Below, in pieces: positions 21,483 to 58,616 of a stretch of 58,616 nt of DNA. Every line of letters starts with the position of its first letter. Position 1 is the first letter of the stretch. The stretch is from Hydrurus foetidus (lineage: Eukaryota). The notes beneath the pieces are model-generated. The model made no database searches. It saw nothing but the letters and a program-made list of their open reading frames with translations, and was not told the DNA's origin. The position numbers and the translations under genes were made by a program. The stretch is taken from positions 1-58,616 of the forward strand of contig UYFQ01000714.1 of assembly GCA_900617105.1 (NCBI GenBank). The letters are read 5' to 3'.

Positions 21483-22045
21483 GCCCAATAAGAAAGAAGT
21501 TGTTTGTGAGAGGCCCAACATTTATTTCTCGATCCCAACACTTGGAGAAATTTGATGGCTCTTTAGTTCAGAGCCAGTCTCACACTAGACTGTTGAAGGA
21601 CTCGTAGAATTGATAAACTGATAGAGTCGCTGCCAGAGTTCAGATAACAACAGAGTTATCGTCGCTTTTGTGCTTCAATGTCAAGTAAGTCATCTATGAT
21701 CAGTGCTGCTACACCGCACCTATTTATCCCAGAATCTGAGGTAATCTGGGCTCCTAAAGAAGACCTAGATATTACCGTAGCAGAATAAAATATAAAATGC
21801 CCGGTGTTTAGACCGTTCCTTACGGTTTGGGATCTGAGGCTGTTCCTAACGTGACCGACGCAACAAAACGCCGGAGCACCGGAGCAAACTTGCCGCCGCA
21901 GAATTTTGCGTCCCCACCAAAATCTTCCGAATATTGATGTCGGAGAAGTTGTACCGAAGCGCCAAAGCACAGAAGCATTACAGTATATTCATACCGACCG
22001 ACATCAACGGATACTCAATCGCGAACACAGAGTACCAGCAACAGC

Positions 22046-23588: not shown

Positions 23589-23820
23589 CATTAAGATAAG
23601 CTTCATGTTTCATATTCGATCAAATCTTTTGTTAAAAATTTAATCATACGCCATTCAACAGAAGTACTTTAAGTCTTTATGAACCCTACATAATGTATGA
23701 AATTATAAAGTTAAACTATTGTATGTGAAACAAAAATAAATGTAAAGTATTGTATGTAAAACAAAAATAGATGTAAAATATTGTATGTAAAAAGCATTAA
23801 GTGAAAACGAAAATAAATTG

Positions 23821-37660: not shown

Positions 37661-39721
37661 GATGAGAACACGCGTTAAATTATCCGCTACAGATAAATTT
37701 CCTCTGTACCTTTTCTAGAATCATGTCGATCTGATGGTGACAATGACCGCTTTCTCGCGCTTTGATTTCCTTCTGTTACGACGTTGATTCAGTGACAAGA
37801 CACGGAGGAGCAAGGATTTTGTGTACTAACGGGTATACCCGTTAGCAAAAGCTCTGTTAGATCCAGTGCGATGCTAGTTAATGGGTCCGACATTTAGAGT
37901 TGTCACCGACCCACCTTCCATGGAAGCCTAATCTCAGTCAAACTTCTGACTGAAACCGGATGGAGAATTTTTTTGTTAAATTCAAATCAGAACAAATGAG
38001 GCAGTGCCACCGGTGAAGTATGAGGATGCCTCTTGTAGAGGACAATGTATGACCTATCAAACTACGGAAGGATTCTGCTTATCAAATCACAATCACCTGT
38101 GATTTGGGAGAGTTGAGAGTTGAAAAAATGGTTCGATCGTCGTTCTTCAATTTACCATTTCGCGATTAGAGTGGTTGCGATTTTCGTTATTTGACCTTTT
38201 TTTTCAAATATTTAAAAAAAAAACCCGAAAAAATATTCAAATATTCTTGAATCCCAGCGGTGGCGGAATCTTGAACCCAACCGTTATCCTGAACCCACGA
38301 TCTTTCAAAACTGAACGTTAGCAACCTATTATTTTCGAAATATTCATTACTTCTTGCAACATTTTCAAAAGCAGATCACAATTCGAGATTAGCAGTTGCC
38401 TAGATCACTTCGTTAGCTATCGAGCGGTATCTTTCATTTCCTCTTTTGCGTTCTTCTACTTCTGGTTAGAGTGTCCTTCGCCAACGAGATTGACGGCAAC
38501 TTTTACGATTCAAAAATGTTGAAACTAACGAGATATCAGGACTTATCTGATTGGGTACTGCTGGCATCAGACCAGAAAGAGCTTTGTGAGAACATCTTGG
38601 GAAGTGGGATGAGTGCTTATGCATGGTCGCAGCGACATAATAGGAATTATCAAAGCATCAAAAGATACATGAGAAAGTACAGACTGTGGAAATCTACTGG
38701 AATGGACACCTTTCATGATTCTTACGGGGGACGTCCACCAATGATCGATGACGCTGGAATAATCAATATTAGAAACGATTTGAGAGCTAATCTGAACTCA
38801 AGCACTTGTCAGAACTCAATGACGAATCAGTTTCAAATTCGAGTTGAGAAAGAGATTGCTGAGACGAAAAAGAGGAGAGGGTTTGCGGCGACTGAGTGCA
38901 CTGTACCCAAGAAGTTTGTCAGGGTATTCAAAGCAACGAACAGCTTTACTGACGTCGTGTGTCAATTTAAGACTCATGCTCGTATATTTGCAGAAAGTGA
39001 CCCACGCAATCTATATTCCTTCGCTATGATGAATCAGGCTTTTCTTTCTGGAATCGATGCATGCTGCGTATTCAACTGGGATGCAACACAGTACTGTGTG
39101 AATGCAGAGGGCTTTGCAACAATCGTGAAGTGTAAAAGCGAAGGACGCGATGTAGTTCCAACATCTTTGAGCGCAGGAGGACTTGGATTTGCTATCAAGT
39201 ATTATCACTTTCACAATGCTAACGGTGACGTCGCTCCAGCTGTTTTCATTGTTGCCGACGATACAATGTCTGAGGATGATCTATTTTGGGAAGAGATCAC
39301 TGGGCTTAGTCATACACAATTGGTAGATGCTAGTGGATATCTGGTCTTCACCAAAACGAGGAACTGCAATGCAGCATTCTACCGGTGGTATGCATTTCAC
39401 GTTGTGGCACCCTTCGTACTAAAATGCCGGAATATTCACAAAAGCGTGAATGCAGACGGAACGCCAATGAGAGCATTCGTAGTATGCGACGGTGAACCCT
39501 CGCAAATCCAAGTATTTCAGGAGAGTGGTCTCTTGCAACTGATGAGCGAGACCTTGATCGACTTTGGAAAATCACCAGCGTCCTGTAGCGCCATAACTCA
39601 AGCATCTGACGACAGTGACTTCTTCAATGGATCAAAGAAGAAATTGCAGAGAATTCGCGAGACAGATTACATTGATAAAGGGCTTAATGCAAGATTGAAG
39701 GAAGTCGTGGGTAATCGTGTT

Positions 39722-40123
39722 TGTTATAGCTTCCACTATTTCATAGTTTCCACTATATTGCATTCTCACACGTACGTTACATGTATGTACGTACATAGTA
39801 CACATTGCTTGCAGCCACAGGTTTTTCGGTACCAGCTTTTCGGTACCAGTTTTTGGTTTCTCGAATACTTCAACTTGCAACTCTCGTAGTCAGCTTCTTC
39901 GATACACCTCTCACATCTTTAAATCTTTAAACAAAACACCAAACCCAAACCGGCTTCTTTTAGCCAAACATCCTGTCCAGCGACTCTCTTGTTGCTGAAC
40001 GATCTGTGGCCGTTAGCCGCTCATCCTAGTTTGCAGTTCTCGCAAACTGATCAACAGCCCTTGCAGTTGATCCAAGAAACCCGTCCTCTCGTTTTAGCTT
40101 CTGTAAGCTACGTGGACAGCATA
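39722..40123 (+). repeat. 5' LTR
   Basis: Direct repeat of 47218-47619; C at 39885 vs T at 47381. Confidence 0.97.
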
Positions 40124-40331
40124 AAAGTACTTTTCTCGTTTACACAAGAACGATCAGACAAATCTCCAGTTCAGAATAAGACTCTTCAAGCCAGACGACG
40201 GTCGTAGTTTGCGAATCTGGCCAAACAAGAGCTGATACTGTTCGGGTGAGATTCAACTCCTTCAGTGACATTTCACGAAGCAAAAAATATTTGTACAAAA
40301 AATATCCTTCTCTTCTTCGAAGAAGAAATCC

Positions 40332-42059
40332 ATGTCGAAAGAAGTTCCTACTGTTCCGAAGAACTCGCCGAAGTTGGATCCTGGCAAGTCTACTACTAAA
40401 GATGAAACTCCAATCATTCGAAAGAATAACGACGATGCCGAATTCCGCGCCATGGTTACGCAATTCTGTCAGCAGAGTGTCAGAAATCAAGAATCCAACA
40501 GAGAAGACATCACAGAGTTGCGTGCAGCCATCGCTTCGTTATCAATGAAACCTGGCGATGAAAGTCCATACTCTCTTGGTGATATTGAGACACCTGTTGC
40601 GGATCGTTCGAAAAGCGACCGACGTTCCACCATTTTCTTTGGGCAATCATTGTCTCCAGATGATAAGCAAACCTCCTCCCAACAACCACGCATCCAGATA
40701 TTGCAAAATGATATCGTCTACGATAAGGAATTGAAAGTTTCCTCACTAGAAGGACTTCAATACCTTGCAAAACAGATGCAGCTACTAGCTTCAAAATATC
40801 CTGGTCGCGACATCAAGATGGCTCACATGGTAGCTTACAACTTAAGGCCTCATATCGTAGCCAACTGGAACTCCTTCCGTTTCCGACAGTCACAAGTGGA
40901 TGGTCGTGAGTATGAAGAAGTAATGGTTGAAGACTGGCTTTCCTTCACAAATCCATCTGTTCAACAGATTCTAATCGAAGCTGCGAGACCACGCACAAAG
41001 GAGTTGTATTCGCGGGAACTCATTCTATTCCTTGGCAAAGGAATTCCACAAAGCCCCGACATCAACACCGAGAATTTCTCGAAAATATTCTACGGCCCGC
41101 TCATGAGATCTCTCAATGATTTGCTCAGTCTGTACAACCTCCTATCTGAGGAGACATCTAAGCTCAGCAACAACGCTGCCAAAATGCCCGTTGGTACCTA
41201 TGGTACAAAAGATAGCCCTGGCCATATCTCACTCTGGATTATATCACTCGGAAGTCAAAAAGATTCAATCCTACAATGGCTAGGCAAAGATGATTTAAGC
41301 AAGCATAAAACGCTTGAGTCGGCTGTCAAGTTCGTCCGTTTCAAACTCATGGAAGGACGTTCCAACAGTGAAGCCCGGCAAGATTTTGATTCCCAATTAA
41401 CGCCTATGCGTTGGAATGAATTGCGTTCCACTCAAGGAGAGTCTCACAGCAGACATCAAATACCAGCCTTAAATCCATCTCATCAACGTGTTGCTGAGAT
41501 CTCGAAGACCCGTCATCATTTTCGTACCAACTTTTCAGCGCTTGCCTCCTCAACCGACACAAACATGGATCACCAAGACAATCATGATGATACTGGTTAT
41601 AACAAAATTGACGAAGACTATGATTATGACGACATAGAAGACTCTGACTACTCTGTCTACAACAGCCATCAGAATTCTACTGATTTAATTAATGAACGCA
41701 ATCCATCCTCCCCAGACGAACCTTCATTAGCTGTGCTCACTACCACCAATCCCTCACGTGCTGCTATTGCGGCTACTTTTCGTGGTTATTGCTGTGAGCT
41801 GTTTGTATTCGGAAAATGCTCCCAGTCAAAGAATTGCACGAACGATCATTCAACGGCAGCTCAGGAGCGTTGTCTGGCTTCCTTTAATCTGCTCAGCAGA
41901 CGAGAGATTGCTGCTCATGGTCAGCTACCACCATGGTCCCAAACCTCAAATACACAACCTCGTCCTGATTACCGCAAAGGGCTCACGACACATCAGAGTT
42001 CCAATAAATTCGAACCCTTACATGGGAAAACCTTCTACCCTCCAATGAAATCAAATTAG
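40332..42059 (+). CDS. gag: Gag-like protein with CCCH zinc finger
   Basis: 575-aa ORF directly after the 5' LTR; C-x7-C-x5-C-x3-H near the C-terminus. Confidence 0.85.
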   Translation: MSKEVPTVPKNSPKLDPGKSTTKDETPIIRKNNDDAEFRAMVTQFCQQSVRNQESNREDITELRAAIASLSMKPGDESPYSLGDIETPVADRSKSDRRSTIFFGQSLSPDDKQTSSQQPRIQILQNDIVYDKELKVSSLEGLQYLAKQMQLLASKYPGRDIKMAHMVAYNLRPHIVANWNSFRFRQSQVDGREYEEVMVEDWLSFTNPSVQQILIEAARPRTKELYSRELILFLGKGIPQSPDINTENFSKIFYGPLMRSLNDLLSLYNLLSEETSKLSNNAAKMPVGTYGTKDSPGHISLWIISLGSQKDSILQWLGKDDLSKHKTLESAVKFVRFKLMEGRSNSEARQDFDSQLTPMRWNELRSTQGESHSRHQIPALNPSHQRVAEISKTRHHFRTNFSALASSTDTNMDHQDNHDDTGYNKIDEDYDYDDIEDSDYSVYNSHQNSTDLINERNPSSPDEPSLAVLTTTNPSRAAIAATFRGYCCELFVFGKCSQSKNCTNDHSTAAQERCLASFNLLSRREIAAHGQLPPWSQTSNTQPRPDYRKGLTTHQSSNKFEPLHGKTFYPPMKSN

Positions 42060-45000
42060 GGAATTGCGAGGCCCTCATTGACTTCCCTACAGTCAGAGGA
42101 TCACCTCGCCCCTTCTTCCATAGTCTTTGATCCTGAAGCTATTCTCTCTCAAGCACTCCTCTCACAACTGGCTTCTAGTACGTCTGTACCCGCACAAGCT
42201 CTTTGTCAGCCTTTCATTCGCGCTGGTTCAGTGCAATCTAAGGACGGACTCAACCCATTCCATTTCGCTCGTGGTCTATTGGACACTGGCGCACAAGGCA
42301 GTAACTTTGTTTCCGGTACACTAGTTCTCAGCCTACCTAAATCGCATACGCTTGCTACTCGACCAACGGATCGCATTGTCCGCCTTGGTGATGCACGTCA
42401 CATTGCAGTTCAATCTGAAATCCAACTCCTGGTCTGTTTGACTGATTCCTCTGGCAACGATCACGCTCACATACTATGGTATAGTGTTCTTGAGGATCTC
42501 AGTCATGATCTTATCATTGGTCTCGTCGACCTTGTCGGACCTTTCTACGATGTATTCGCTGATGCGATAGCTTCTTCTCGAAAATCTGCAATCGGAGCTA
42601 TAGGAACTAATCTTCACGCTTTAACCGCCACAATCCGTGAATCCCTACCTTGTGCTCATCTTGGCAACACAATTCGCACAGCGCATAACCTTAGTTCCCA
42701 CAGTCGATCGTACGATCTCCGAAAGCGTGCCATCTGTACTAGCTCCAATACTGATATCTACGCTGTTGCTCTGCATGACGGTTCCAGCACTGATGTCCTT
42801 TCACACCCGCGGCATGGACTAGTGTATGCTGACAACCGCGTCGAACTACAGCACAATGCACTCTCATCATTACTGACTCAACCGTCATCAGGAGATATCC
42901 TACCACCTTGGTCGCAACCAATTGATCAAATTGCACTCGAAGAATCCGAGACGCCTGATCCAACAAGTTTCCCTGACGATATACTCATGCTTCTCACTGT
43001 CTCAAAAGATGAGGCTCGTCATGAATACAATAAAGATTTAGAGACTCACGTCATGCCAGAAATGAGTGCCGCTCATCCCAACATCTATCGCCTTCTCACG
43101 TCTGACCTGGCATATGATGTCTTTGTTCCTCAAACCTGGACAGGTATACATATGCCTCCATACCATCTGACCACAAAACCTGGTCTCCCTGAGTTCCTGA
43201 AAGCTCACACCCGCCCAATTCGCGATATGCTCTACCAACATGCCAAAGCAGAATTTGATCGGATGAAAACGTACTTCTACGTGAAATCAAATTCACCAAT
43301 CGCTTGCCCGTTAGTAGTTGCACCTAAAGCCACAGCACCATTCATCCGCTTGTGTGGTGACTACAGGCCTATCAACCCCTTCATATCCATTCCACAGGAA
43401 CCCATTCCACATGTACAGCAATCCTTAGCAAAAGCAGCCGGATGGAAAGTCTTTGTAGATCTTGACATGACAAACTCATTTCATCAAATCCCACTTGACG
43501 AAGCAAGTTCCAACCTTCTGTCTGTATCTACACCATGGGGTCTGTACCGTCCCCTCTTCCTTCCTGAAGGTGTAGGACCAGCATCAGGAATCCTCCAATC
43601 AATCGTCCGCCGAGTATTTATCGACTATGAAGACTGGATCATTGTCATCTTCGACAATTTTCTTATCCTCGCCTCTGACTACGCTGATGCAGCCAAGAAA
43701 CTTGACCTTGCTCTCCGACGTTGCCGCGAGCATGGACTAGTGCTCAAAATGAAGAAGTCTTGGATTGGTTCCACAAATGTAACATTTTTCGGCTATGACG
43801 TACATCCAGGAACCTGGAGCCTCTCTCAGTCTCGGAAAGATGCCATCAGTGCTCTTGTCTTTCCGACAACGCAAAAGCAAATGCAAAGCTTTCTAGGTGC
43901 TGCAAACTTTTTCCACACTCACATCCCCAACTATGCCTCATGGGCATCCGATTTATACGAGTGTACTGCAGTGTCTTTTGACTGGAAGTCTCTGACATGG
44001 CCAAAAGACTATCGCAACCTATTCGAAACATTCAAGACAGCAATCCAAGCTTCAGTCATACTACACTTCCCAGACTACAACCTTCCCTGGATCATCAGAT
44101 CCGACTCCTCCGACAACGCTGTGGGTGCTGTCCTCTTTCAAGAATTCACTGATTCATCCGGTACCATCATCCATCAGCCGATCACATTCGCATCTCATAA
44201 ATATTCCGGCGCCGCAGTAAACTGGGATACCTACAAAAAAGAAGCATACGCAATTTACTATGCCGTGTGTCAATTCGGGTATTACTTAACCGGCAAAACC
44301 TTTGTTGTAGAAACTGACCATCGCAATTTAGTATGGATGGAGACAAGCCTTGTTCCTATCATCATACGCTGGCGTGTCCTCCTTCAAAGCTACAGCTTTC
44401 AGATCAAACATATCCCTGGTAAAGAAAATGGTGTTGCCGACTGGATATCCCGTATGCATCCTCAATCGACACCATCTTCAACCCTATCGTCATCGGAGAA
44501 TACACTCAGTATTCAAGAAATGTTCGCATCTGTTCACGGTCATCGATCACTCCATCACGGAGCCAAACGAACTTACCTGACTCTTTGTCAACGTTATCCT
44601 GGACATGGCATCGCACTCCGCACCATCCAAGACCTTGTAGCTGAGTGTCCGATTTGCCAAAAGGATCGAATCCCTTTTGCCACTGTACCTTCTCCTTCAC
44701 TTACTGAAACAATCCTTCACCACGTTCGCGCCGTCGGTATGGATCATGTTACAGTTACACCTCCTGACGAAGATGGTTATATCGGATTGTTACTACTTGT
44801 AGAACATGACACAAAATTCCCCCGTGCTTATCCAGTACGCGACTACACTGCTCCTACTGTCGCAACTATTCTGTTCCAACATTACTGTACCTTCGGTGCT
44901 TATGATGCACTATACTCTGATCCTGGCAGTGCATTCACTGCAACAGTCGTCCAACAGCTCAACTCTTGGATTGGTATTCCCCATCGTATATCAGTTATTG

Positions 45001-45854
45001 GACGTCACGAATCTAACGGAACAGAACATGTAAATGGTATCTTCATGGGTCACTTACGCCGTCTAGTTCATGACGAACGACTCACTCATAAGTGGGCATC
45101 TGACACTATCTTACCTCTTATCAATCATGCACTAGCCACCACACCAAATTCCGAACTTGGCGGTCTCGCTCCAACAGAGCTGAAGTTCGGTACAATGGAT
45201 CATGCCCGCTTTCAACTACCACCGCCGCTTCCACCAGGTCATTCCTACGGTGAATACGTTAATCAACTAGACATAAATTTGTCAATAGTCCGTGCCATCA
45301 CAACACAATATCAACACGAATTGCGACAAAAACGTCAAGCATCCACAACAAATCAAAACATATATCAAAAAGGCGATCTCATATTGTGGAATCCAAAAGA
45401 ACATGACAAGGCGTTTCGGTCATCAAAACTTGCACCAAAACTATTAGGCCCATACACTGTAATCACACAAGACGGAAATAATATTACCTGCCTGCACACT
45501 CAGCTCAATACAGAACACGTCTTCCACACCGACCGCATTTCCCCCTACATCGGCACAATGAGATCAGCACAAAAGATTGGACTACTTGATCGAGAAGAAT
45601 ACATCGTCAAATCAATTGTCGCTCATCGTGGAAAATGGACTCACCTGAAATCAATTGAGCTCCTCGTCCACTGGCACGGCTACACCTCCGATTCCGATTC
45701 CTGGGAGCCTTGGACTTCGCTCCGACTTGTCAAGGCCCTCCACGAGTACCTACAAAAGATAGGGCATACAAATAAAATCCCACTCCCCTACCGACACGAT
45801 TACCTCCCTCAACAAGGTATCGATACTACTCCAAAAGCCCACAAGGGTGCTTGA
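42060..45854 (+). CDS. pol: Pol polyprotein (protease, RT, RNase H, integrase, chromodomain), in frame with gag after a single TAG
   Basis: LLDTGAQG; RLCGDYRPIN, DLDMTNSFHQI, IFDN; SDSSDNAVGAVL, ETDHRNL; HHCC and GMDH/YSDPG/NGTE; EYIVKSIVAH..VHWHGY..DSWEP. Confidence 0.96.
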   Translation, partial: GIARPSLTSLQSEDHLAPSSIVFDPEAILSQALLSQLASSTSVPAQALCQPFIRAGSVQSKDGLNPFHFARGLLDTGAQGSNFVSGTLVLSLPKSHTLATRPTDRIVRLGDARHIAVQSEIQLLVCLTDSSGNDHAHILWYSVLEDLSHDLIIGLVDLVGPFYDVFADAIASSRKSAIGAIGTNLHALTATIRESLPCAHLGNTIRTAHNLSSHSRSYDLRKRAICTSSNTDIYAVALHDGSSTDVLSHPRHGLVYADNRVELQHNALSSLLTQPSSGDILPPWSQPIDQIALEESETPDPTSFPDDILMLLTVSKDEARHEYNKDLETHVMPEMSAAHPNIYRLLTSDLAYDVFVPQTWTGIHMPPYHLTTKPGLPEFLKAHTRPIRDMLYQHAKAEFDRMKTYFYVKSNSPIACPLVVAPKATAPFIRLCGDYRPINPFISIPQEPIPHVQQSLAKAAGWKVFVDLDMTNSFHQIPLDEASSNLLSVSTPWGLYRPLFLPEGVGPASGILQSIVRRVFIDYEDWIIVIFDNFLILASDYADAAKKLDLALRRCREHGLVLKMKKSWIGSTNVTFFGYDVHPGTWSLSQSRKDAISALVFPTTQKQMQSFLGAANFFHTHIPNYASWASDLYECTAVSFDWKSLTWPKDYRNLFETFKTAIQASVILHFPDYNLPWIIRSDSSDNAVGAVLFQEFTDSSGTIIHQPITFASHKYSGAAVNWDTYKKEAYAIYYAVCQFGYYLTGKTFVVETDHRNLVWMETSLVPIIIRWRVLLQSYSFQIKHIPGKENGVADWISRMHPQSTPSSTLSSSENTLSIQEMFASVHGHRSLHHGAKRTYLTLCQRYPGHGIALRTIQDLVAECPICQKDRIPFATVPSPSLTETILHHVRAVGMDHVTVTPPDEDGYIGLLLLVEHDTKFPRAYPVRDYTAPTVATILFQHYCTFGAYDALYSDPGSAFTATVVQQLNSWIGIPHRISVIGRHESNGTEHVNGIFMGHLRRLVHDERLTHKWASDTILPLINHALATTPNSELGGLAPTELKFGTMDHARFQLPPPLPPGHSYGEYVNQLDINLSIVRAITTQYQHELRQKRQASTTNQNIYQKGDLILWNPKEHDKAFRSSKLAPKLLGPYTVITQDGNNITCLHTQLNTEHVFHTDRISPYIGTMRSAQKIGLLDREEYIVKSIVAHRGKWTHLKSIELLVHWHGYTSDSDSWEPWTSLRLVKALHEYLQKIGHTNKIPLPYRHDYLPQQGIDTTPKAHKGA

Positions 45855-45908
45855 ATATGGAAAGCCCAACACCTGAGGCGAACCCCTAATAGTAAGTCCT
45901 TGTTAGTT

Positions 45909-46580
45909 TTACACAACAACATTCTCATCAATTAAATCAAACGCAAAGCAATGTGATATACAATAAAATCGCTGCGCTACATTCAACACACTGAATAATT
46001 TAACGCCTCTGCAACCATTATCATACATATTGATCACACCATCACAAACAATTATACTCATAGCATGGTTTGGAAGTAGCATATTCTGCTTCTCCCATAC
46101 CTTAGCCTTCAACGTGTCACCCTGTGCTCTCTTGATTTGCTTCAATTTACTCGTATGAGTAGGCCCTGTGCTCCTTGAAGCTCCAAAAATAATGTATCTT
46201 CCATTCACAGTCAATTTCTTCTTCAACTGCTTTGGTCCGAATCTATTATTGAATTTGATCTCACGAAACTTATATGTCCAGTTTTCACCCCTAACACTTG
46301 CCACCTCGCAAACATGACGTAAGAAATCGCGAACTTCATCTCTACCACAACCATCTGGCAACACCGTAATGTTGTTGGCTGTCATGAATACATCCCTTGG
46401 ATCCTTGGCTCCATTAACCTACACCATTTACATATTATACATATCAGCAAATAACTCAAAATTATTCAATTCAACGATTTTTCGACTTACCGTCACCATC
46501 GCCTGCTGCTTCGCGTTCAGTGCTGACATGATCGCAAATAATACGCACATATTCTCGTCTAAACTCCACTTGAACTCCAT
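45909..46580 (-). pseudogene. Antisense accessory ORF of the chromovirus, putative papain-like cysteine peptidase fold, two in-frame stops
   Basis: MEFKWSLDENMCVLFAIMSAL... and MTANN...NHAMSIIV...MYDNG are in the same frame, separated by TAA (46430-46428) and TAG (46421-46419). Confidence 0.5.
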
Positions 46581-46872
46581 ATTGTACACACTCCACCGCA
46601 AGAATACGAAATTCGCCAAAAATTGTACGTAGTATCCCCAATAAATACGAAATTTTTCAAAAATCGTACGCAGTATCCACACTGAATACAAAAAATTTCT
46701 CCCGACACGTTTCACCGATCTTCTCACACGTTTCACCGATCGGCAATTATTGATTTTTTCTCCAAAACGGCAGAGACAAATAAAAAATCGAAGTTCGAAT
46801 AAATTGTGATTGATTACAGATTCTGAACCGCAATTAAAAACTACATCTGAATCCATCTCTCAAAACTCTCAC

Positions 46873-46926
46873 AACTTCAACTTCAACTTCAACTTCAACT
46901 TCAACTTCAACTTCAACTTCAACTTC
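46873..46926. repeat. (AACTTC)9 hexamer array in the retrotransposon 3' region
   Basis: Nine perfect units. Confidence 0.95.
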
Positions 46927-46984
46927 AACATGAAAACTAAAACATGATTCTAGGCAAATGAAGGTCCCCTGTTCATATTAAACT

Positions 46985-47053
46985 GGTTTCGGTGAAGCTA
47001 TCGAATCTTAATTTCACACTTTGAAGGTCGTGAGTTCGATTCTCACATATAAC
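46985..47053 (+). other. Degenerate tRNA-Val(CAC)-like sequence inside the retrotransposon
   Basis: ggtttcg start, ttCACac loop, aggtc variable region, perfect T-arm gtgag-ttcgatt-ctcac; D-arm and acceptor stem degenerate. Confidence 0.55.
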
Positions 47054-47217
47054 TACTGCTAAAATGAAACCGCCAGTAATATTTTTCTTACCTCATATCT
47101 AATTATGCTTCTACAGCGATACAACAATGTTTGCGAACTCACTGAGATGTAACAACATATTTTGTATTTATTCATTTTTAACTCCCATAGTCTCACATTT
47201 AACCGCGAAAGGGGTGG

Positions 47218-47619
47218 TGTTATAGCTTCCACTATTTCATAGTTTCCACTATATTGCATTCTCACACGTACGTTACATGTATGTACGTACATAGTACACA
47301 TTGCTTGCAGCCACAGGTTTTTCGGTACCAGCTTTTCGGTACCAGTTTTTGGTTTCTCGAATACTTCAACTTGCAACTCTTGTAGTCAGCTTCTTCGATA
47401 CACCTCTCACATCTTTAAATCTTTAAACAAAACACCAAACCCAAACCGGCTTCTTTTAGCCAAACATCCTGTCCAGCGACTCTCTTGTTGCTGAACGATC
47501 TGTGGCCGTTAGCCGCTCATCCTAGTTTGCAGTTCTCGCAAACTGATCAACAGCCCTTGCAGTTGATCCAAGAAACCCGTCCTCTCGTTTTAGCTTCTGT
47601 AAGCTACGTGGACAGCATA
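47218..47619 (+). repeat. 3' LTR
   Basis: Direct repeat of 39722-40123, preceded by the purine tract. Confidence 0.97.
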
Positions 47620-49066
47620 TGTTGATCAGGATGGCAATCCAAGACTAACTAGTGCAAAGAAGACGCTAGTGTGCAATTCGCTACAGCAAGTTGTATACTC
47701 AATCAAGCATGTTCTAACACCAGAGATAGTGAAGACTGGTTACAAGCGCATTGGACAACACCCCTTATCCTTTCTTACAACCATGGGACGCTGCACGAGA
47801 CCAATCTCTGCTCGGGATATGGCCACTATGCAAGAGGCTATACCGGATATGGTCGCCATATTTAGAGCTACTGGGAATCTAACCGAGGAACAGATGGATG
47901 CAGCAGGGATTCTAAGCGTGAACGATGAAGCATCCAATTCAAGACCCAAAGACGACCGTCCATTGCATCAGCAAAGGTCAGTTATCATGAATGCTGATGA
48001 CTGCGTCGCCAAGTATAGATCCTATCAGAGCTACAAAGCAGCAGAACCAGAACGAAGAGCTACCGCAATGCAGCAACGGCAAGCTGCAAAAGAGATTCGA
48101 GAGAAGAAAGCAGATGGAATTAAGGCTCGAAAGGATATCAAGGAGGCAGAAAAATTACGACGGTCCAACCTTACGCCAGAGGAGAGGAGAGCAGAGGATA
48201 AGATCAAGCGTGCAGCGAATAAGGAGGCCAAGCGAGTCGCTGCTGCTCAAAATGGAGTGCAGGAACTTCCTGAAAACGATCCTGACGGAGTAATCGATAG
48301 CGACGATGATGACAATTTATTTGACGAGCAAGAAATCGCTGAGATAAGTTCATTCTTGCCTGTTGCAAATATTTGATGTTCTGCGCCAGATGATTAACCC
48401 GTGTTCGAAATTATCCCGCGAGAGCGGATTAGCTTAACAAATTGCGTGGGAAGTTATCATGATTGTAGAGCAGTCCTCTGATTTTTTTGCCCATTTTGTT
48501 TTGTTCGTAGCCCTCATCCTCGCTTCATAATTGTCTGCTGAATTTTTGCTGTTGAGGACCGATCTGATCCCAAGATATTAAACAAAATAAATTCCAAATT
48601 CAGCTCGTTTCGTCCCGAAAATTCATCCGCAACTGAGGATGACGATGGCGAACTAGATTGCCAAGGGGCGTCCCGATTGGTTCAGAATCAGTTGTGTTGT
48701 GGTAGTAATTGTAGCTGCCGTGGTGAGAGTTGGGCAGGTTGAAAATATGTGCGGTGGGTTCAGGATAACGGTTGGGTTCAAGATTCCGCCACCGCTGGAA
48801 TCCCCCACTCAAAATAAAAAAAAGTCGAATCCGTCAAAATGTGAAATTCGACTTTTTTCATTCTGTGAAAATCACTGATCTCATTTTTATTTTCCCTGAG
48901 GGTTGAATTTTCCCTTCGCAACCACTTCGGGAGGGCATTTGAAAAGTTGAATATTCAAAAAGTAAAAAAGTCAAATAAAGAAAATCGCAACCACTCTATT
49001 CTGCTGGCATATGCTTGGCATAATTTAGCCCTCCGGGGATTTTGGATTATGCTAGCATTATGCCTG

Positions 49067-51009
49067 CAAGGGGGTATAAAAGGAGAGGGGGCACTTTGAG
49101 GCCTCTGGGTCCCATAAAATTTTCTCCGATGTCTCTCACTCAAAACATTTATACCCGAGATTCTTATATTGCATCTATTTCATTACGAACCACATGAAGC
49201 ACATATACTCTCAACATAGAAGTCGACCTCCTGACTACAACGATTATTCTTCCCAAGCGTCACAGGCATCCCCGGATTCGCAATTCCTCGCAGCTGAAGC
49301 CAATGTAAGAAAATTTCCAAATCGATGTGCATTGAATAAGAGTTATGTCATGACTGTCGTCCATAATTTCGATGTGGCATCGCTAGATGGACATGACGCT
49401 GTGAATCCAACGTGCACTAAGGACGTCTAATCGGTCTTAAATACCATAAAAATGCCTCCTGAGTGGTTTAGTGCATGGTGCTACTGGAATTATTACCTTT
49501 TTTCGAGTGAGTCACTAACAATCGTCTACTTCACTTTCTATCCAGAAAAATGTCTTCGGACACTGTCGATGGGGTTGAGCTGCTGAGCATATTCAAGGCT
49601 TTCCTAGACCTGAAATTTCATGATTCTGTCAGCGAATCACCCACCTCCATCAATCGGATTAACGAGTGTTTGCTCACAGAGATACTGCACTCAATGTTAG
49701 TAATGCTGTTCTTATCCCAGACGCACCAGATTTACTAAGCAGTACATTAGAAAGTCTAAGTTGATAAATGTCTTTAGAGTACACACGTAGAAAGCCTGTG
49801 ATGAATTGAAATAAGAATGCAATAGGCGTTTTGTGTAATGCTAAGTCTAGACCGTCTGTGAAGCAATGCTGTCATGTAACACAAGACTCTCTGAATGCAT
49901 TTTGCACATTAGTTGAGTTCATTATGATTTGTTTGACTTAATTCACCGGTTCATCAGAATTAAACAAAATCAATACATCGGTGGTCAATGATTGCATGTA
50001 TATACTCTGAATAATTTTTATAAAAATGTAGTTTCCAACTCTAGGGAAATACAGACCCTCAGAGTGCTGTCGAAAAAGGAGGTAATGCGCAGGCATGTCG
50101 TCCGATAATGCAGAAGATCCTAAATCAGCGAGATTGGGTGTAGTATTCGTGAAATACGTCTCGGAAATCGTTGCACAACCGATTATACTTTAATACGTTG
50201 AATATTCTGTGACCGCAAAGATAGCCTTTTATATCATAGATCTTCTCTTTCATTGCTTCTGAGTACTCATCTGTTGTATCGTTTTCTCTCTCTTTTATGA
50301 AATTAGACCAGTGCTGCTTCTTCTCTGTCATAACCCATTTCCAGAAATTTTCTGATAAATAAAGCTCCAATGATCCATACAAAATGTTGCTTTCTTCAGA
50401 AGTGCTGTCGCTCTCATAATCGACAGCCATGTCGAAAGTATCTTTGATACAGGCCAGACAGCTGAACTTCTTCCTTGACTCGTCCCGTAGTTGAATTCTT
50501 TCAGATTCGAACGCTTGAATCATCACTTTGCCAGCTCGCTGACGTTTCTCAATTGAGCCACTCGTGCCGCCAATCGCAACTTTTTGGTATAGTTCAAAAT
50601 AGGCAGCACAAAAGCCGTACAGCAAGACGATGATGTCATTACTCGACTCTGGGACACTCATGCAGCTTCTGAAAAATCCCCAAAAAATGCTTCTTCGCTG
50701 CATGTTAAAAGGGATGCATTCGAAGAGGTTTTGAACGGTACTCCTAAAGATACCATCTTCCTCTGTGAAAACCTCCATGGTCAACTTCCTCATGATGAAA
50801 AGCTGTCGATAGTCTACAACTGAGGCAAGGCTTTGACTGAAGTTTGGTTGCAAGGAAATTTCTCAGGCGGGAGGGAAATGAAGAGAATCTTTCAAATAAT
50901 TAGATGCAGTATAAGAATCTCGGGTATTAATTTTGAGTGAGAGACATCGGAGAAAATTTTATGGGACCCAGAGGCCTCAAAGTGCCCCCTCTCCTTTTAT
51001 ACCCCCTTG
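49067..51009 (-). mobile_element. P-element-like non-autonomous TIR element
   Basis: About 110-bp near-perfect TIRs starting CAAGGGGGTATAAAAGG; 7-bp TSD ATGCCTG (49060-49066, 51010-51016). Confidence 0.85.
49990..50853 (-). pseudogene. Frameshifted ORF remnant inside the P-like element
   Basis: 242-aa ORF with KGYLCGH, then after a frameshift RQHSEGLYFPR, resembling the YIxGY...GLxxP pattern of P-transposase C-termini (inference). Confidence 0.5.
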
Positions 51010-51333
51010 ATGCCTGGCATAATTTGACCCATTTTGATGATAAGTGGCATAATCTTTACGGCAGTGGCATAATTTCATCTACAGTAGGCATAGTAGAAGT
51101 AATGTGCTGAATTTGGTATCATAGTAACTGACCAAATAGATTTTATATCCCTTTTATTGGTACCAACTTATTGCTATTCGAAAAAAGAATGACTGCCGAA
51201 GATACTAAATCAAGGACTTCCTGATTCCTGACTGCGAATTGCGAATCAATTTTCCAAAGTGGAGCATTATCTATTATCTATCGTCAATTATCGTATCATC
51301 GCATCATCGCCGTGCACAATCATATACATCAAA

Positions 51334-53663
51334 ATGGAACAGATTACGGCAGATTACGATAGCGGCACTGAGCAGGAGCAGGAGCAGGAGGAAGATGATA
51401 GACATCCCGCAATATCCTCAGCTTCAAATCATTCCAGCTCGACTTTTTTTTCGCCTCGTACTTCAGCAGCAACCCCAAGATCTGGAGTTACTGTACCCGC
51501 TGTCAGAGGTGGTGTGAAAAAGGTTTTCAAACACATTGAAATTCAGGCTTCAGACGACGACTCAGCGGATGAGGTGGACTACGTCCCTCCAAAAAACTAC
51601 GCTGAGGATAGTGATGACAGTAGCTCCGATGAGTCTGTTGCACCCGAAGTGGGATCGGAAGAAGAAAGAGACAAGATGAAAGAAATAGAGAAAAATTTAC
51701 CGATGGAAAGCAGTCTATGCCGCAAGAGAAAAGTCAAGAAATCAAAAGGAACTTACGCAAGAGCAGCTACAAAAGTCACGACAAACTTAAAATCTAAGAC
51801 ACCGTTCGATCGCGTCAGAGAATACCCAGATCAACCACTAACTGTAGTGAATGGTAAACTATGCTGCAGGGTTTGTAAGAATCAGGTTCTAGCGCTGAAG
51901 GTATCAAGCATTAAGAATCATATCAGGAATGACACTCACAAACGCAACATGGTGAAGGAGGACAAAACTCAACTAACGCTACTAAGCTACAAACAACTTG
52001 TTGAAACCAACGAGTCCGAAGAGTCTGCAGCGGGCGCAACTCTCTCTCTGGATGCAAGCGCGTACCGGATGGCCGTCTGTCATGCCTTCCTGAAATCAGG
52101 GACGCTGTTCGCACTTCTCGACAATGGCTCCGAAATCCGCGACCTTCTCGAGGATGGCCATGCAAAATGTCCGAAGCAGGCTTGCAGTGACATGATTCCC
52201 TTGCTGTACAAGAAAGAGTACGAAGAAATTGTGCGAGAATTAGACGACGTGCACTCCTTTTCTATCAGTTCAGATAGGACTATTAATGTTGCTGAAGCTC
52301 TGGCTGTGGTAAGATTGCTGCATTTTCGAAATCAAGTGCCTTCAATCAATTTACTTCCGACTTCAAAATGCCACAGATTGTGCGGTTCGTCGACAATAAA
52401 AAGACCATACAGTAAAGAGTCCTGGCACTGAGTTTCCTCGACGAACTTTTGACAGGGAATTCTTTGGCTGCCCAAATTATCAAGCAAGTCATGACAATGG
52501 CTCATCAAAATCCTATGAAACTCCGCTTCAACACTGTCGACAGCTGTGCCACGAATGGAGTAGCCAAAGAAGTGATGAGCACAGTTTTTACCCAATGCTG
52601 TGATCTTGTGTGTGTCTCACACACATCGAATCTTCCGATGAAGTTGTTTGAGAAAACTACTGATACAGCTCACAACGTTCTACAGTGCTGGAGTCAGTGC
52701 CTGACTCAAGGATCGAAAGTGCGCGCCGCAACACGCCGTGCGCTTGGAGAAAAAGGCATGAAAAATCATGCCATCCGGTGGATGGCTGAATACCGGACCG
52801 CGGTCCAAGTTGGTGATAATTTCCGATTAATCAAAGACATTATCATCAATGAGGATGTTGGATGTGCCAATCTCATGGACACACTCAAAGGGATAATCAA
52901 TCGCCCCGCCGCCAATGGACTACCTTCTGGTGAACACATCCTCCGTCTGGAGTTAGCTCTTATCAAAGACGTTGGGGACCCGATTGCCTACTTCTGCAAC
53001 CATTATGAGGGCGATGGATTTCTTTCCCCGTACGCTTATGACAGCTGGAATAATCTTATCGGGCATTTGAGAACAGTCGTGAATAGATATGGTGAGGCAG
53101 ACTTTGTCTCATTTATGCGTTATGTCGCAAGAGAAACAGCTGAAGACGATTTGAATGAGGAGCAGCATTTGGTTGAAATGACTATCTTAAAAGCGAGAGT
53201 CGTTCTCGAAAAGCTGGAGTCCAATACAGTAACGAGATTTCGGGATACCCTCCACGTTCTAAGAGGCTGTCGCCTTCTGGGTTATGCTTTTATTAAAGAG
53301 ACTACCTTTGAGGCACTAGAGGAAGGAGTCGATTTCATTCAAAACCTTCCCATAGCGGGGACTTTACTGGATGGTCTCCGAGCAGAACTCAGAACATATA
53401 AGAATTTGGCAGACAACTTTAATGCAGAGGATCCGGACGGTTGGTTGTTTTGGAGGCGATATTTCATTAGACTCCCTTTATGGTACAAGGTAGCTGCAGA
53501 AGTGGCATTAGTCATGTGTTCAAGCGCTGCTGTTGAGAGAGTGTTTTCCTTGTTAAATTGCTTGTTTACTGATCAGCAGAGAAAGTGCTTAAACGACTAC
53601 AAAGAGACTTCTATTATGATACGATACAATGAGAATTTTCGAGAGAAAAAGCAGTATGTGTAG
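51334..53663 (+). pseudogene. hAT transposase with one premature stop (2 exons)
   Basis: Exons 51334-52308 and 52377-53663; CRVC..H..H Zn finger, SISSDRT, TVDSCATN, CVSH, WMAEY, FW..LP..SSAAVERVFS dimerisation motif; in-frame TAA at 52413-52415. Confidence 0.9.
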
Positions 53664-54113: not shown

Positions 54114-56785
54114 TGTTGATTAACGTCCGATAGTACAGCAAATAAATCTGATGCAGCAGCTAATAGCGCGGTCACTGATACGATTAGATGCTACTTCCAT
54201 ATATACACACATCGCACTCAATCATCATTTATACAAACATCGTCATTTGAATCAACAGATAGTGAACCACTTCTCGCATAATTTAATTCTAACACTCGTG
54301 AAATACGATCATTCATGTCACCTTTGGTCCGTAATCAAATCTACGGCATCAACAGTTGGAATTAAGAGACATCGACCATGGCCACATTCCCAGTAACTCT
54401 GTTGGACAATCCTCGGCAACAATTCAGATTGTTTTATCGTGCTGCACTTGCCGCATATGGCGCGGCATGCACCACAATATATCAGCACGGCCTGCTCGGC
54501 TACATCGTCACCGACAACCAATGGGAACTTTTGCCCGGTAACAGCGCCCCCAATGCGGATCCTGTTCTCCCCAACGATATCCTTCCTCGCCCCACAATCA
54601 CGATTCCTCCCGCTCCCACTGCAACGGCAAGTGCCCTGACAATTAAAATTTGGGAGCGTAAGCTGGCAGATAATGTGCTGGTCACCGATAGCCTACGAAC
54701 GCTCAAGGCAAACCTCAGCCAGTATTCAGCCGGCAGATTTAGTGACACTCCACGATCCCTTCTTTGGACTACTTAACGTCAGTGCCCTAACTATCATGAC
54801 GCACATCACAGAATTACACGGTACCCTCAATCAGGCCGACTTCGCGCACCTCCGCAGTCAACTATCGCTCACCATGGGCCATAACGAGTCTATTCAAGAC
54901 TTCATCGGAACGCATCAACTTCTACATGATCAGTTTGCTGAGGCACAACAACCTCTCTCGGAGCTCGATAAGTGCCACCACTTCCGCGAAGCAGTTAAGC
55001 CCTTGACACACATCCATCACACCATCGATTCCTACTTGGTTACACATCCCCTAGACGGACAGCAACTATATCGCGAACTGACGACCCATGTTTTTCAACA
55101 AGCGCCTAACTTCACTCCCACGGCAGCGTCAATGGGATATGTGGCCACAGCATCTGCGCCAACAAACGCTCAAACGGAGCCATCATCCGTCGCCACACTC
55201 CTTCAATCTTGAGCATTTGCCGCCCTCCTCACCGCCGCTATCAAACATGCCGCTCCCGACCGTAGAAACGGACGAAATCGATCCGCCGCAAAAAAGATCC
55301 CTGCCTCCGACAATCGGCCGTACTGCTTCCATCATGGGTACGACAGCCACCATGGTGTCGACTGCAGATACATGTCGGCCAATGCCTTCTCCTCCGATGA
55401 ACGAGCCGCTACCACGCACGGCACACTCACAGGCGCTTCCAGTAACCGTCTCTGACCTGCAGGAACGGCTGGAATGCTTCCATGTTCGCTTCACGCACAG
55501 TGTAACTTAACAAGTACAGCATCTCTATCCGTTCCATCTTCTTTTTGCACCGACACGGGATCCACGAATACGTTGATTCGCGAATCAGATGCCAACCACA
55601 TTCATTTCGACGAGCCAACTCTCTACGTGCTGTTTCCCAATGGCAACACAATCGCCTCCATCGGCTCGTGCCTTATTCACATTCCTAACCTCCCTCACTC
55701 ACTGCTCACTCATGTATTCCGTGACGATGTGCTAAACACGTCACTTCTCTCCATCACCCAACTTTGTCAACTTGGTTGTGTCGCCAACTTCAGTGCCACC
55801 ACCGTCACAGTTACCCACAACACTCACACTGTGTTCCAGGGTACCAAGTCATCGGTAACCAACCTTTGGACAGTTCCCATTCCACACCTAGTCGCCACGT
55901 CAATAGCTCATGCTGCTACTGCACTCACTTCCGACGCTAACTTCGTTCGATTTGTGCATGCGGCACTCGGAAGCCCGTCGCATTCCACGTTTCTCAAAGC
56001 CGTTCGACGCGGATACTTGCACTTGTACCCGCGGCTCACATTCGCTCTCGTATCTGCTCATCCTCCACTTGCTATCGCCACGGCTCAAGGACATCTGGAC
56101 CAACATCGACAAAGCCAGACATCCACTGGAGTCCACGTCAATCTCTTCGATATTGACGACGATGATGATAGCGAGGCTAACCAAGCAAAAAAATCTACCT
56201 CGCCAACAGCGCACCAATCATTAGCATACACTCAAGTCGTACTCATGTCAGACACACTACACTCTGACCTAACTGGCCGTTTCTCCGTTACTGCACATAC
56301 CGGCGCTCAGTACCTATTTGTGTCATACCTAGATGGCTACATACACGTGGAGTCCATGAAGACGCGGCATCACATAGATTATATAACAGCATACAAAAAA
56401 ACGCTCAATTATTTCTCTAAACTTGGTCGCCATCCCGCTTTCCAGCGACTCGACAATGAGACATCTGGTTCGTTAGAGGCGTTTGCTCTTGCAAGCAACA
56501 TCTCCATACAGTACTGCCCCCCTCACACTCATCGATCCCTAAAGGCCGAGCGCGCAATTCGAACTTTCAAGAACCATTTTATTGCAACACTCTGCACAGC
56601 ACCTCCTGATTTCCCACTCCTGCTCTGGAATGAGCTACTGCCGCAAGTTGAGCTCTGTTTCAACCATCTCATTCCCTACAGTCCCAACATATCTGTTTCT
56701 GCATATGCGGGCCTCCACGGCGGAGCTTCAACTTCACAAAGCATCCAATTGCTCCTGCCGGAACGCGCATTCTGATACACGATAA
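54114..56785 (+). mobile_element. Decayed, 3'-truncated Ty1/Copia element (diatom CoDi-like)
   Basis: Putative LTR 54114-54354 (TGTTGAT...ATCAACA); gag 54378-55455 with a frameshift and stop, YCFHHG..H...C motif; pol with DTGST, LHSDLTGRF, LDNETS, AERAIRTFKNHF; RT absent. Confidence 0.85.
55456..56785 (+). pseudogene. Copia pol fragment (protease + integrase)
   Basis: 433-aa ORF 55474-56775 with PR then IN order; frameshift near 56725. Confidence 0.85.
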
Positions 56786-58616
56786 GCCTGCTGTCTGCGT
56801 CACGCATACCCAGCCATATGTTATTTGTTTTCTTTAAATTTCGCAGTGTGCGTTGTACACCACCATGTCCGACTATCGTGTTATGGCACGTTGCAATTAG
56901 GTTACATTGCTCGGTCGTCATTGGTTTGTGTGTCAGAATAGCTGCTATTACTCCTGTTTTAGGTAGCATTCTGTTTTTACATAGGCGAGACATTGCGTCA
57001 GCAATTTCATTTTGTTTCCCTGGGATATACCCTATCGTATATTCTAGTTCCTGCAGGGCCATACGCCATCTGCCGACCATCTCGTTTTTATCCTTTTCTA
57101 GGAACGTAAGATTTTTGTGGTCTGTTAGGATTGTGAATTTACGATCTCGCAGCAGTGCGTCGAGATAAGTACAGCAATAATATAGCGCGAAGGCTTCTTT
57201 TTGTATTACTGACCATTTCAGTTGAGTCTTGGTAAGAGACTTGCTGACAAGAGCGACGAGTTGTTTTTCTCCGTCGACTTCTTGATACAAATAGCCGCCG
57301 ATACCGTAATCCGACGCATCGGTCATAAGGGTTATGGGCGCTGTATCGTGTATAAAATATAATAAAGGACTCCTTGCAATTAGATCTTTTATCTTTTGAA
57401 AAGAATTTGCGGCGTCATCTGTCCAGATTAGCATTGATTGCTTTTTCGCGGTGTGATCTATCATTTTATGCAGTGGTGCCACCACGTTGGAGTGATTTGG
57501 TACATGATCCCGAAAATAATTGGTGAGTCCGAGAAACGATCTTAGTTCGGTCGTCTTTCTTGGCATAGGAAAGTCGGTCACACCTCTTATCTTTTGGAAC
57601 TCATAGTTATACCTTCTTTAGATATTTGCTTACCAACATATTCAACTATTTGCACATTTAGCTTAGCTTTGCGGCTTTTAGTGAAATGTTCTTTTCTTCG
57701 AGACGTTGAAATACAATTTCTAATCGTTCGCAGAATTGATCAAATCCATTACCATAAACGATGATGTCGTCGAGGTATACTTCACAGATTTGGTATATTT
57801 GTCCTAAAAGGACTATTGAGGCCATCATTTCTTGGAAATATGAGGGGGCCCTCTTTGGTCCGAAAGGTAGTCGGGTGAAGTGGTAGATGCCCATAAATGT
57901 TATGAAAGCGGTATACACACGTGTGCTTAGCGTTAACGGTGCCTGGTGATATCCTGCAGTGAGGCCTATTACACCGAATGTGTCAGCTTTTTGTGAACCT
58001 AATCTTGCTAACATTTGTTTAATATTAGGGATTGGCCAGCTTGCTGATTCCGTTGCGTCGTTGAGGTGACGATAGTCAATACAGAATCGGTATAAACCGT
58101 CGGGCTTTGCCGCGAGTGTTACTTGCGAGTAGTATGATGCCTCTGATTTGACTATTATACCCTGTTCGAGCATAGTGTCAACTTGTTTTCGGATTTCGAC
58201 CTGTTTTCGTGTAGACGTTGGTCTGGGTGCCACGCGGTTTTTGAAAACTTTCCACTCTGGATCCCGTACGGGTAGCCCAAAGGGGGGAATTCGCGCGGGC
58301 TCTGGTCCGAGTTTGTTGTTGAATAGCTTTATGTGTTTGACACAAATTGCTCTAATTTTGCTTGTTGTTCAGGGGTACCATCGATTCTGTATGAGATCGA
58401 TGAGGTACATTTGTCCTCTGTTGGATTGTCTTGGAAAGGAGCGAAGGTATCTTTCGACTTGTAGTCAATCTCTTCGGGTCCGAAGGGTTGAACCTCTGGG
58501 AGTTCTTCACGCTCCCGGAGTAGAGCAGCAACTAAACCAAGTGTTTGGGCTGGTGCCTTGGATGAGGGAGTAGGAGTAGCTAATTCCGGACTCCTGTCGG
58601 CTGTTACACCTAAATA
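56786..58616 (-). pseudogene. Decayed Ty3/Gypsy pol fragment (RT, RNase H, start of integrase) running off the window
   Basis: RFCIDYRHLN, RLPFGPK, VYLDDII, LRSFLGLTNYFR, TDASDYGIG, TDHKNL, ADAMSR, H..GHGG; frameshifts near 57590-57660; first catalytic Asp appears as G (VIGLTAGYHQ). Confidence 0.92.

Follow-up and report, generated by a model that had tools for sequence, protein, structure and literature searches.

A recently inserted Ty3/gypsy-type element of Hydrurus foetidus belongs to a large clade with an xDN reverse transcriptase motif

Is a retrotransposon whose reverse transcriptase (RT) has lost the second aspartate of motif C a decaying copy, or does it represent a lineage with a different active site? 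The question is raised by an element at positions 39722-47619 of contig UYFQ01000714.1 from Hydrurus foetidus, which we analyzed as one stretch of 58,616 nt (the window; all coordinates are positions within it). The original prediction for this locus described a young, intact chromovirus with many non-canonical features and proposed that these are lineage traits rather than signs of decay. Our analysis indicates that this is a recent, intact element of the Ty3/gypsy type from a large clade with an xDN motif C, and that its RT is probably active, two acidic residues likely replacing the lost aspartate.

Motif C of the element reads IFDN (43647..43658, + strand), as had been predicted, and because it aligns with YLDD of Ty3, both the tyrosine and the second aspartate are replaced. 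Among the close homologues (the best 120 of 590 matches, 59-99% identical), 119 carry FDN and one carries YDN, and thus all 120 have xDN. An HMMER search of the whole protein library returned 71,150 matches, and we examined the best 150, which are representatives of clusters at 50% identity. Motif C is covered in 146 single-RT representatives, ~40-80% identical, and every one has xDN (126 FDN, 8 YDN, 8 HDN, 3 WDN and 1 VDN). The other four of the best 150 comprise one protein that does not cover the motif and three multi-RT concatemers, ~28% identical, with ordinary DD. With this element included, xDN is found in 147 of 147 sequences and the canonical three-aspartate YxDD site in none. The same motif was seen in metagenomes, where 79 loci were fetched using patterns outside motif C and FDN was present in 69 of the 73 that cover it. 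Across 71 distinct motif neighbourhoods, the asparagine codon is AAT in 32 and AAC in 37. Comparison with three relatives (64-75% identical) showed saturated synonymous divergence (dS) and a nonsynonymous divergence (dN) of 0.09-0.14 in the RT, which is the most constrained part of pol. Finally, a quick IQ-TREE search with 55 DN and 8 DD RT domains, which kept the motif columns and left out about two thirds of the representatives, separated the two groups along a long branch with a Shimodaira-Hasegawa-like approximate likelihood ratio (SH-aLRT) support of 99. Two matches from plasmid records, considered as outgroup candidates, are not part of this tree. Because all 120 homologues and all 146 representatives carry the motif, the alignments identify Asn533 as a conserved lineage trait and not a product of decay, in a clade far larger than the original prediction could have known.

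DN elements were also encountered in unexpected places. A collection of viral contigs gave two loci for the wide alignment and no match for the close alignment or for a neighbouring YLDD element of the window. IMG/VR contains two DN elements (L081 and L080); one of them lies on a contig assigned to a giant-virus metagenome-assembled genome (MAG), which reflects either a binning error or a true insertion. DN-element fragments on short contigs in bacterial MAGs (L082-L088) are most likely eukaryotic contamination. Some DN-clade polyproteins have captured extra domains, namely CYTH (P0414), Exo_endo_phos (P0074, P0416, P0452) and SET (P0452).

We next consider the age of this particular copy. The 5' long terminal repeat (LTR; 39722..40123, +; 402 nt, TGT...ATA) and the 3' LTR (47218..47619, +) are identical at 401 of 402 positions, the single mismatch being C at 39885 and T at 47381, and a polypurine tract lies at 47207..47217 (+). 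The gag (40332..42059, +; 575 amino acids, ending in TAG) and pol (42060..45857, +; 1264 amino acids) open reading frames (ORFs) are uninterrupted, and pol continues in the frame of gag after the TAG. The pol product contains protease (PR; motif LDTG at 42279, +), RT, RNase H (RH), integrase (IN), an SH3/GPY-like module and a chromodomain, in the gypsy-type order PR-RT-RH-IN. Pfam detected the RT, RNase H and chromodomain, and the integrase and SH3-like module fell below its cut-off. LTRs, polypurine tract and target-site duplication (TSD) are all present, as in Ty3/gypsy-type elements (Metaviridae).

The insertion is flanked by TGTT on the left (39718..39721, +) and right (47620..47623, +). 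Contigs from three of four runs (X3, X5 and X1, from two studies; some of these may be the assembly's own source) contain an empty-site allele in which 39717 is joined directly to 47620. Because this allele omits 7902 nt, which is exactly the element plus 4 nt, it fixes the TG..TA ends and the 4-bp TSD, with TSD length and right LTR end both read from one insertion site. The host is a DNA transposon-like element (38251..48801, +) with 48-nt inverted repeats, and its long ORF, which has no Pfam match, is split by the insertion. Deletion of the element plus 4 nt restores the host frame; this result alone is compatible with other multiples of three, which are excluded by the empty allele. We had considered TG..CA ends with a mismatched 6-bp TSD, since both LTRs end in CA-TA, and this arrangement is also ruled out by the empty allele. 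An unprocessed right end (CA plus TA) would be no more than a guess; without the TA, the right LTR end equals the left end at four of six nucleotides. Because the empty allele occurs in the runs, the insertion is either polymorphic or recent. Together with the near-identical LTRs, it establishes that the element is real, intact and recently inserted, and the predicted LTR identity, TG...TA ends, 4-bp TSD, open gag and pol and recent age all stand. Read depth over the element is ~6-8x that of the flank in X3 and X5, an excess that hints at several copies and provides no copy count. Two RNA runs, X19 and X20, contained 9% and 7% of the sequence words.

Two further features of the locus emerged from the runs. 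The DNA transposon-like host at 38251-48801 itself has an empty allele and a diverged copy there. At positions 43970 (a silent A>C) and 47174 (one extra T), all four runs differ from the window, so these differences are either private to this copy or assembly errors.

Work with yeast retrotransposons bears on how an RT might function with asparagine at this position. As reported in the portions available of the two papers, Ty1 D211N retains polymerase activity with kpol reduced 223-fold and transposition abolished, a defect partly rescued by second-site changes in RNase H (PMC2148107), and Ty3 D214N, although active in vitro, is poorly processive and lethal to transposition (PMC5371799). These laboratory mutants carry the same substitution and keep polymerase activity but cannot transpose, whereas asparagine has become fixed throughout the large natural clade described here, which includes a recent insertion. 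The mutants polymerize, fail to transpose and, for Ty1, can be rescued at second sites, suggesting that the aspartate-to-asparagine swap is chemically viable and requires compensation. Because the clade has fixed the asparagine and is still inserting, such compensation is likely.

Two clade-specific acidic residues are candidates for this role. Motif A contains an extra aspartate, Asp467, two residues before the catalytic Asp469 (43458..43466, +), and motif B contains Glu503 (43566..43568, +), giving PEG. Ty3 differs at all three sites, with YLDD at motif C, PFG at motif B and threonine at motif A -2. Glu503 is present in 147 of 147 sequences, its Ty3 counterpart being phenylalanine, and position 467 is Asp in 129, Glu in 8, Asn in 8 and a gap in 2 of the 147, with lysine, alanine or threonine in the DD concatemers. 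Asp469 is conserved in 145 of 147 and Asp532 in 147 of 147. From the geometry of HIV-1 RT (positions 108 and 151), we presume that Asp467 and Glu503 lie near the active site. The metals would be held by Asp469 and Asp532, while Asp467, which is predicted to neighbour motif C within the palm sheet, may together with Glu503 restore processivity or pyrophosphate handling. The RT is likely still active, the function of the lost aspartate having likely passed to these two residues.

An opposing explanation is that the RT is dead or crippled and that the elements are mobilized in trans by a canonical YxDD element. The transposition defects of the equivalent yeast mutants would agree with this model (PMC2148107, PMC5371799, in the portions available), and a YLDD gypsy does lie nearby at 56676-58368. 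We consider trans-mobilization very improbable, because the catalytic and dNTP-binding residues Lys423, Arg430, Asp469 and Asp532 are 97-100% conserved (n=147), the RT is the section of pol under strongest constraint, and the neighbouring YLDD RT is only 25% identical.

The prediction had also inferred altered priming from the lack of a TGG primer-binding site (PBS), and the 41 nt that we inspected where the 5' LTR ends contain no TGG. The PBS position (40123..40134, +) instead holds a perfect 12-nt palindrome that starts with the last LTR base and could dimerize. The window contains 25 palindromes of this kind, five of them within the element, and the one at the PBS is therefore modestly informative. 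The longest complement between the PBS position and the LTR is 5 nt, and the duplex is no better than 196 of 300 shuffles. Self-priming was rejected, as pairing was not significant for this element or for nine relatives with guessed right LTR ends, which likewise had no TGG. A 12-nt leader match to one relative (L029) was within chance. Among the relatives, TGTTG usually forms the left LTR end that follows the polypurine tract, and two begin with TA. We propose from these sequences that the minus-strand primer is probably something other than a tRNA 3' end annealing beside the LTR. The absent TGG is thus upheld, and nothing beyond it was found to support altered priming.

These priming data bear on a further alternative, in which Asn533 is merely tolerated and Asp467 and Glu503 have a different function; if this were, for instance, initiation without a primer, the missing PBS would be explained as well. 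This model is consistent with the failure to find a PBS or self-primer, with the quarter or more of activity that Ty3 D214N keeps in vitro (PMC5371799, in the portion available), and with de novo priming by Ty3 RT in vitro in the presence of Mn2+, which we take as a lead only (PMC10415136, likewise). We nevertheless think it unlikely, because mere tolerance would not fix asparagine in 147 of 147 sequences and de novo priming here is without direct evidence. Compensation for the lost aspartate remains our preferred reading.

Several leaders showed sequence features of their own. Those of L012, L016, L020, L030, L052 and L005, which represent several families, contain two short conserved AT-rich motifs ~270 and ~30 nt before the gag frame, one of which may mark the LTR end. 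The L022 leader (L022:529-944) contains long nested inverted repeats (up to 29 nt, 97%) that represent an insertion or an assembly artefact; as a general feature these were rejected, because they are not general among the relatives.

The Gag protein departs from the Ty3 pattern as well. In Ty3 of Saccharomyces cerevisiae, Gag is of the CCHC type, a +1 frameshift is used, priming is by tRNA and the TSD measures 5 bp. Here, Gag contains a CCCH finger of the form C-X8-C-X5-C-X3-H (41790..41849, +), and this predicted feature turned out to be clade-wide: of 121 Gags, 116 carry the finger, four of the other five being truncated, and none carries a CCHC knuckle. In 40 of 100 representatives with a protease motif, the finger lies upstream in the protease's frame. 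The CCCH finger could take the place of the CCHC knuckle in RNA binding. Structure prediction gave a capsid-like helical core at residues 137-396 of the gag product (+ strand), modelled by AlphaFold with a predicted local distance difference test (pLDDT) score of 84.5. Its best structural match is the capsid (CA) domain of MOAP1 (Z 6.7, root-mean-square deviation 3.2, 101 aligned), a middling score within a list in which all Z-scores are below 8, and retroelement capsids account for 12 of the top 50 matches. Gag had no Pfam match.

The gag/pol junction consists of the in-frame TAG, a 6-nt spacer and a stem-loop at 42066-42109 (42057..42109, +), which together form a predicted readthrough signal. 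We collected 29 distinct junctions with one in-frame stop, this element included, and found 23 TGA, 6 TAG and no TAA codons. The 60 nt after the stop fold at z < -2 in 22 of the 29, compared to 2 of 87 control windows. Within 16 junctions chosen as alignable, a 9-bp stem beginning 7 nt past the stop shows pairing in all 144 cells, and both sides change in seven of its nine pairs. The junction of this element falls outside that alignment and has a longer hairpin of its own (z -3.0), and a relative that is 64% identical (L084) combines TGA, hairpin and CCCH finger. At the sequence level, then, the junction combines one leaky in-frame stop with a 3' stimulator that is conserved, and we predict that it is a programmed stop readthrough signal. 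A spacer of 6-7 nt followed by structure resembles the gammaretroviral readthrough signal. Gag would be the main product, and a minority of ribosomes, stimulated by the hairpin 6-7 nt downstream, would read through UAG or UGA to make Gag-Pol. The in-frame UAG is accordingly present and a lineage trait, as originally supposed, though its standing as a departure was overstated: in-frame gag/pol stops are described for Tj1, Tosmo and Tca2 in the available parts of earlier reports (PMC10085805, PMC4600332).

A separate copia-like element in the window (54380-56775, +) has a gag that ends in TGA directly in the pol frame (55453-55456), which raises the possibility that this host contains another element relying on stop readthrough.

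Several observations weigh against the interpretation developed above. Four of the 73 metagenome loci depart from FDN (three FKI and one FDH), all on short contigs. Only the best 150 of the 71,150 matches were examined, leaving the edge of the clade and any outer DD members unseen, and the outgroup of the tree, itself a quick search with motif columns kept, is only eight DD RTs on long branches. Compensation by Asp467 and Glu503 is suggested by co-occurrence on one stem branch, which is a single event, together with the palm geometry of HIV-1 RT. Seven of the 29 junctions have no strong hairpin, and the stop is not universal, since more than 400 amino acids are open before the protease motif in 41 of the 100 representatives that have it. 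For the modelled Gag fold, every Z-score lies below 8, and Foldseek returned no significant match against its pdb and viral sets.

Is the element a chromovirus, as first proposed? Its integrase ends in a chromodomain (45600..45755, +) that scores 27.4 bits against a Pfam cut-off of 25.1, and this domain is the whole basis of the label. PF00385 is found on 60 of the 69 closest homologues and on none of the next 51 (among the best 120 of 590), and a Pfam scan of 28 mostly distant members recovered no chromodomain; Pfam recognition is thus confined to the close sub-clade. Chromodomain gypsies outside the chromoviruses are described for oomycetes and brown algae (PMC5348765, PMC12477816, PMC11541908), and chromoviruses are described with 5-bp TSDs (PMC6875170), in the available portions of these sources. 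The TSD here is 4 bp at one site, unlike the 5 bp that is typical of, though not strictly defining for, chromoviruses. The PBS position has neither the tRNA PBS of plant chromoviruses nor the self-priming PBS of Tf1/sushi elements. The best match in PDB is Ty3, with E 3e-45 for pol and 1.5e-115 for the clade profile, and Ty3 shares the PR-RT-RH-IN order and an identical integrase D..D(35)E spacing.

The element could still be a true chromovirus on a long branch. The Pfam chromodomain ends the integrase after an SH3/GPY-like module, and, of 148 long-tailed members, 51 contain a chromo-like segment according to a local profile (E < 0.001). Tf1/sushi elements (Tf1, Tj1, Tosmo1-3) also combine an integrase chromodomain with the absence of a tRNA PBS, Tj1 and Tosmo have in-frame gag/pol stops, and the fission-yeast members lack CCHC, at least in the descriptions available. 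Those descriptions also give Tf1/sushi elements a 5-bp TSD, TG..CA ends, a PBS complementary to the 5' end of the transcript and a readthrough context that is a short sequence motif, all unlike this element. We find chromovirus membership quite unlikely given the TSD, the lack of a self-priming complement to the LTR, an RT only 24-30% identical to the DD gypsy RTs compared, and the independent chromodomain gains reported for Chronos, ECR-1 and other stramenopile lineages. Judged on its sequence, the element is better filed as Ty3/gypsy-like. Its integrase would make a 4-bp staggered cut, and its chromodomain may direct insertion into repeat-rich chromatin, in this case a DNA transposon.

Some of the traits first taken as departures are already on record. 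In the supplement of PMC12477816, as far as it is available, every complete Ectocarpus Gypsy family with a TSD value lists 4 bp; TG-TA ends are given for Gypsy-1, Gypsy-15 and ECR-2; and Gypsy-8_Ec32, which is 8005 bp long, encodes gag and pol in separate ORFs, has TGT-ATA termini and is listed with a TSD of 4 bp. The novelty of the TG...TA ends and 4-bp TSD, both genuinely present, was therefore overstated. Gypsy-8_Ec32, Gypsy-1_Ec32, Gypsy-15_Ec32 and ECR-1 share ochrophyte hosts, 4-bp TSDs, chromodomains and, in several, TG(T)-(A)TA ends with this element. They differ in that the available text and table, which allow comparison by description only, mention no xDN, CCCH finger or readthrough hairpin. 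Chronos of oomycetes (PMC5348765, portion available) is likewise a stramenopile Gypsy with an independently acquired chromodomain, but has a second, archaeal-type RNase H. No extra RNase H lies between RH and IN in our element, where RH ends near residue 800 and the integrase zinc finger starts at residue 818. The Kuafuorterviruses/Troyka (PMC11673190, portion available) resemble the xDN clade in being a deep LTR lineage formerly classified as Gypsy, in having a non-tyrosine motif C (IADD, VADD, LADD) and in carrying sporadic Exo_endo_phos domains; they differ in having animal hosts and in keeping both motif C aspartates.

The clade may already be catalogued as unclassified stramenopile Gypsy (for example Gypsy-8_Ec32 or Repbase Gypsy-8_ES) with its xDN unremarked, a prospect that we take seriously without favouring it. 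Such prior cataloguing is compatible with the proposed mechanism and would affect novelty only. Gypsy-8_Ec32 matches in size, ORFs, ends and TSD, other Ectocarpus gypsies share the ends and TSD, and three Ectocarpus lineages carry chromodomains outside the chromoviruses (PMC12477816, portion available). Against this possibility, 20 of 20 clusters checked have no accession or organism name, with members drawn from ENA, JGI, Logan and NCBI, and the string FDN occurs zero times in five Ectocarpus supplements, which hold no protein alignment as text. Judging by the entries listed, no such clade was described in the literature that we covered on motif variants, stramenopile, algal or chrysophyte gypsies, readthrough in algae and protist Ortervirales, with most subscription papers and the Repbase, GyDB and REXdb collections being outside that coverage. 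A bolder proposal, which we advance tentatively and regard as doubtful, is that this is a family-level, undescribed lineage of reverse-transcribing elements in protists, of Kuafuortervirus rank, defined by a carboxylate moved from motif C to motif A, the motif B glutamate, the absence of a tRNA primer, CCCH packaging and, in a sub-family, an antisense protease.

The protease in question would be encoded by an antisense ORF (45909..46418, -) with NHA and YDNG motifs of His/Asp type, which is likely exon 2 of a spliced accessory gene. The sequence predicts a 72-nt phase-0 intron (46419..46490, -; GTAAGT...TAG) and a 30-residue exon 1 (46491..46580, -) with a cysteine at the start of a predicted helix. 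The ORF has eight relatives that are 82-100% identical; their differences are mostly conservative, they share its C-terminus, and the conservation is comparable to that of Gag within the sub-family. Because it is conserved like Gag and does not overlap pol, it is likely coding. There was no tblastn match in the 79 more distant loci, no Pfam match and no PDB profile match under E 0.2. Atlas leads were C58, Mac-1 and C39_2 at 0.79-0.82, under the 0.9 that excludes chance. The exon-2 structure model is poor (pLDDT 41.5), and a fold search with it gave a best Z of 4.6. Given the exon 1 cysteine and the exon 2 NHA and YDNG motifs, all seen by eye, the gene is probably spliced and may encode a papain-like cysteine protease. 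The accessory ORF noted originally is therefore present, and as a lineage trait it is limited to the nearest sub-family.

A (TTCAAC)n microsatellite (46872..46930, +) and a degenerate tRNA-like segment (46971..47054, +) lie in the same 3' region. The segment contains a perfect T-arm/B-box (47030-47046) that is the sole match in the 58.6-kb window, where the expectation is 0.024 for each shuffled element. By eye, anticodon and acceptor stems can plausibly be drawn. Neither ARAGORN nor Rfam called a tRNA in it. ARAGORN found none in 53 loci of relatives, and T-arm matches occur in 2 of 79 loci, both inside ORFs; these comparisons cover distant relatives only, with no close relative's 3' region. 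An element-encoded suppressor or primer tRNA was rejected for the window and the distant loci covered, as ARAGORN called no tRNA and the segment shows no complementarity to the PBS. The simplest reading is a B-box remnant. Of the proposed tRNA-like segment, then, a lone perfect T-arm survives, without a callable tRNA and without a counterpart in the distant relatives.

The remainder of the window is rich in other repeats. The second gypsy (56676-58368, -) is frameshifted, has an ordinary YLDD and an RT 25% identical to the DN RT, and interrupts the copia-like element. A Harbinger-like transposon (21833-25733) has 59-nt inverted repeats, a DDE_Tnp_4 transposase and an opposing ORF, and a hAT-like transposase lies at 51232-53663. 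An element with 79-nt perfect inverted repeats (49067-51009) has an unknown 245-residue ORF, and a 596-residue ORF without a Pfam match (27221-29011, +) has the look of a tyrosine recombinase (Crypton-type) by eye. The window also encodes a plastid-type IF-2 with a signal-like N-terminus, which, together with the freshwater and sediment origin of the runs that contain the sequence, may point to an ochrophyte alga.

The three-aspartate site is regarded as a universal property of RTs, and neither Ty1 nor Ty3 can transpose without the second aspartate of motif C. The natural clade described here, which comprises 146 or more clusters (50% identity), would provide a ready-made experiment on the third carboxylate and its compensation, with Asn533, Asp467 and Glu503 as the residues to mutate. 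YxDD-based filters would discard xDN elements as dead, and equating a chromodomain with a chromovirus misleads in stramenopiles. These algal retroelements also appear to hold a hairpin-stimulated readthrough signal with strong covariation.

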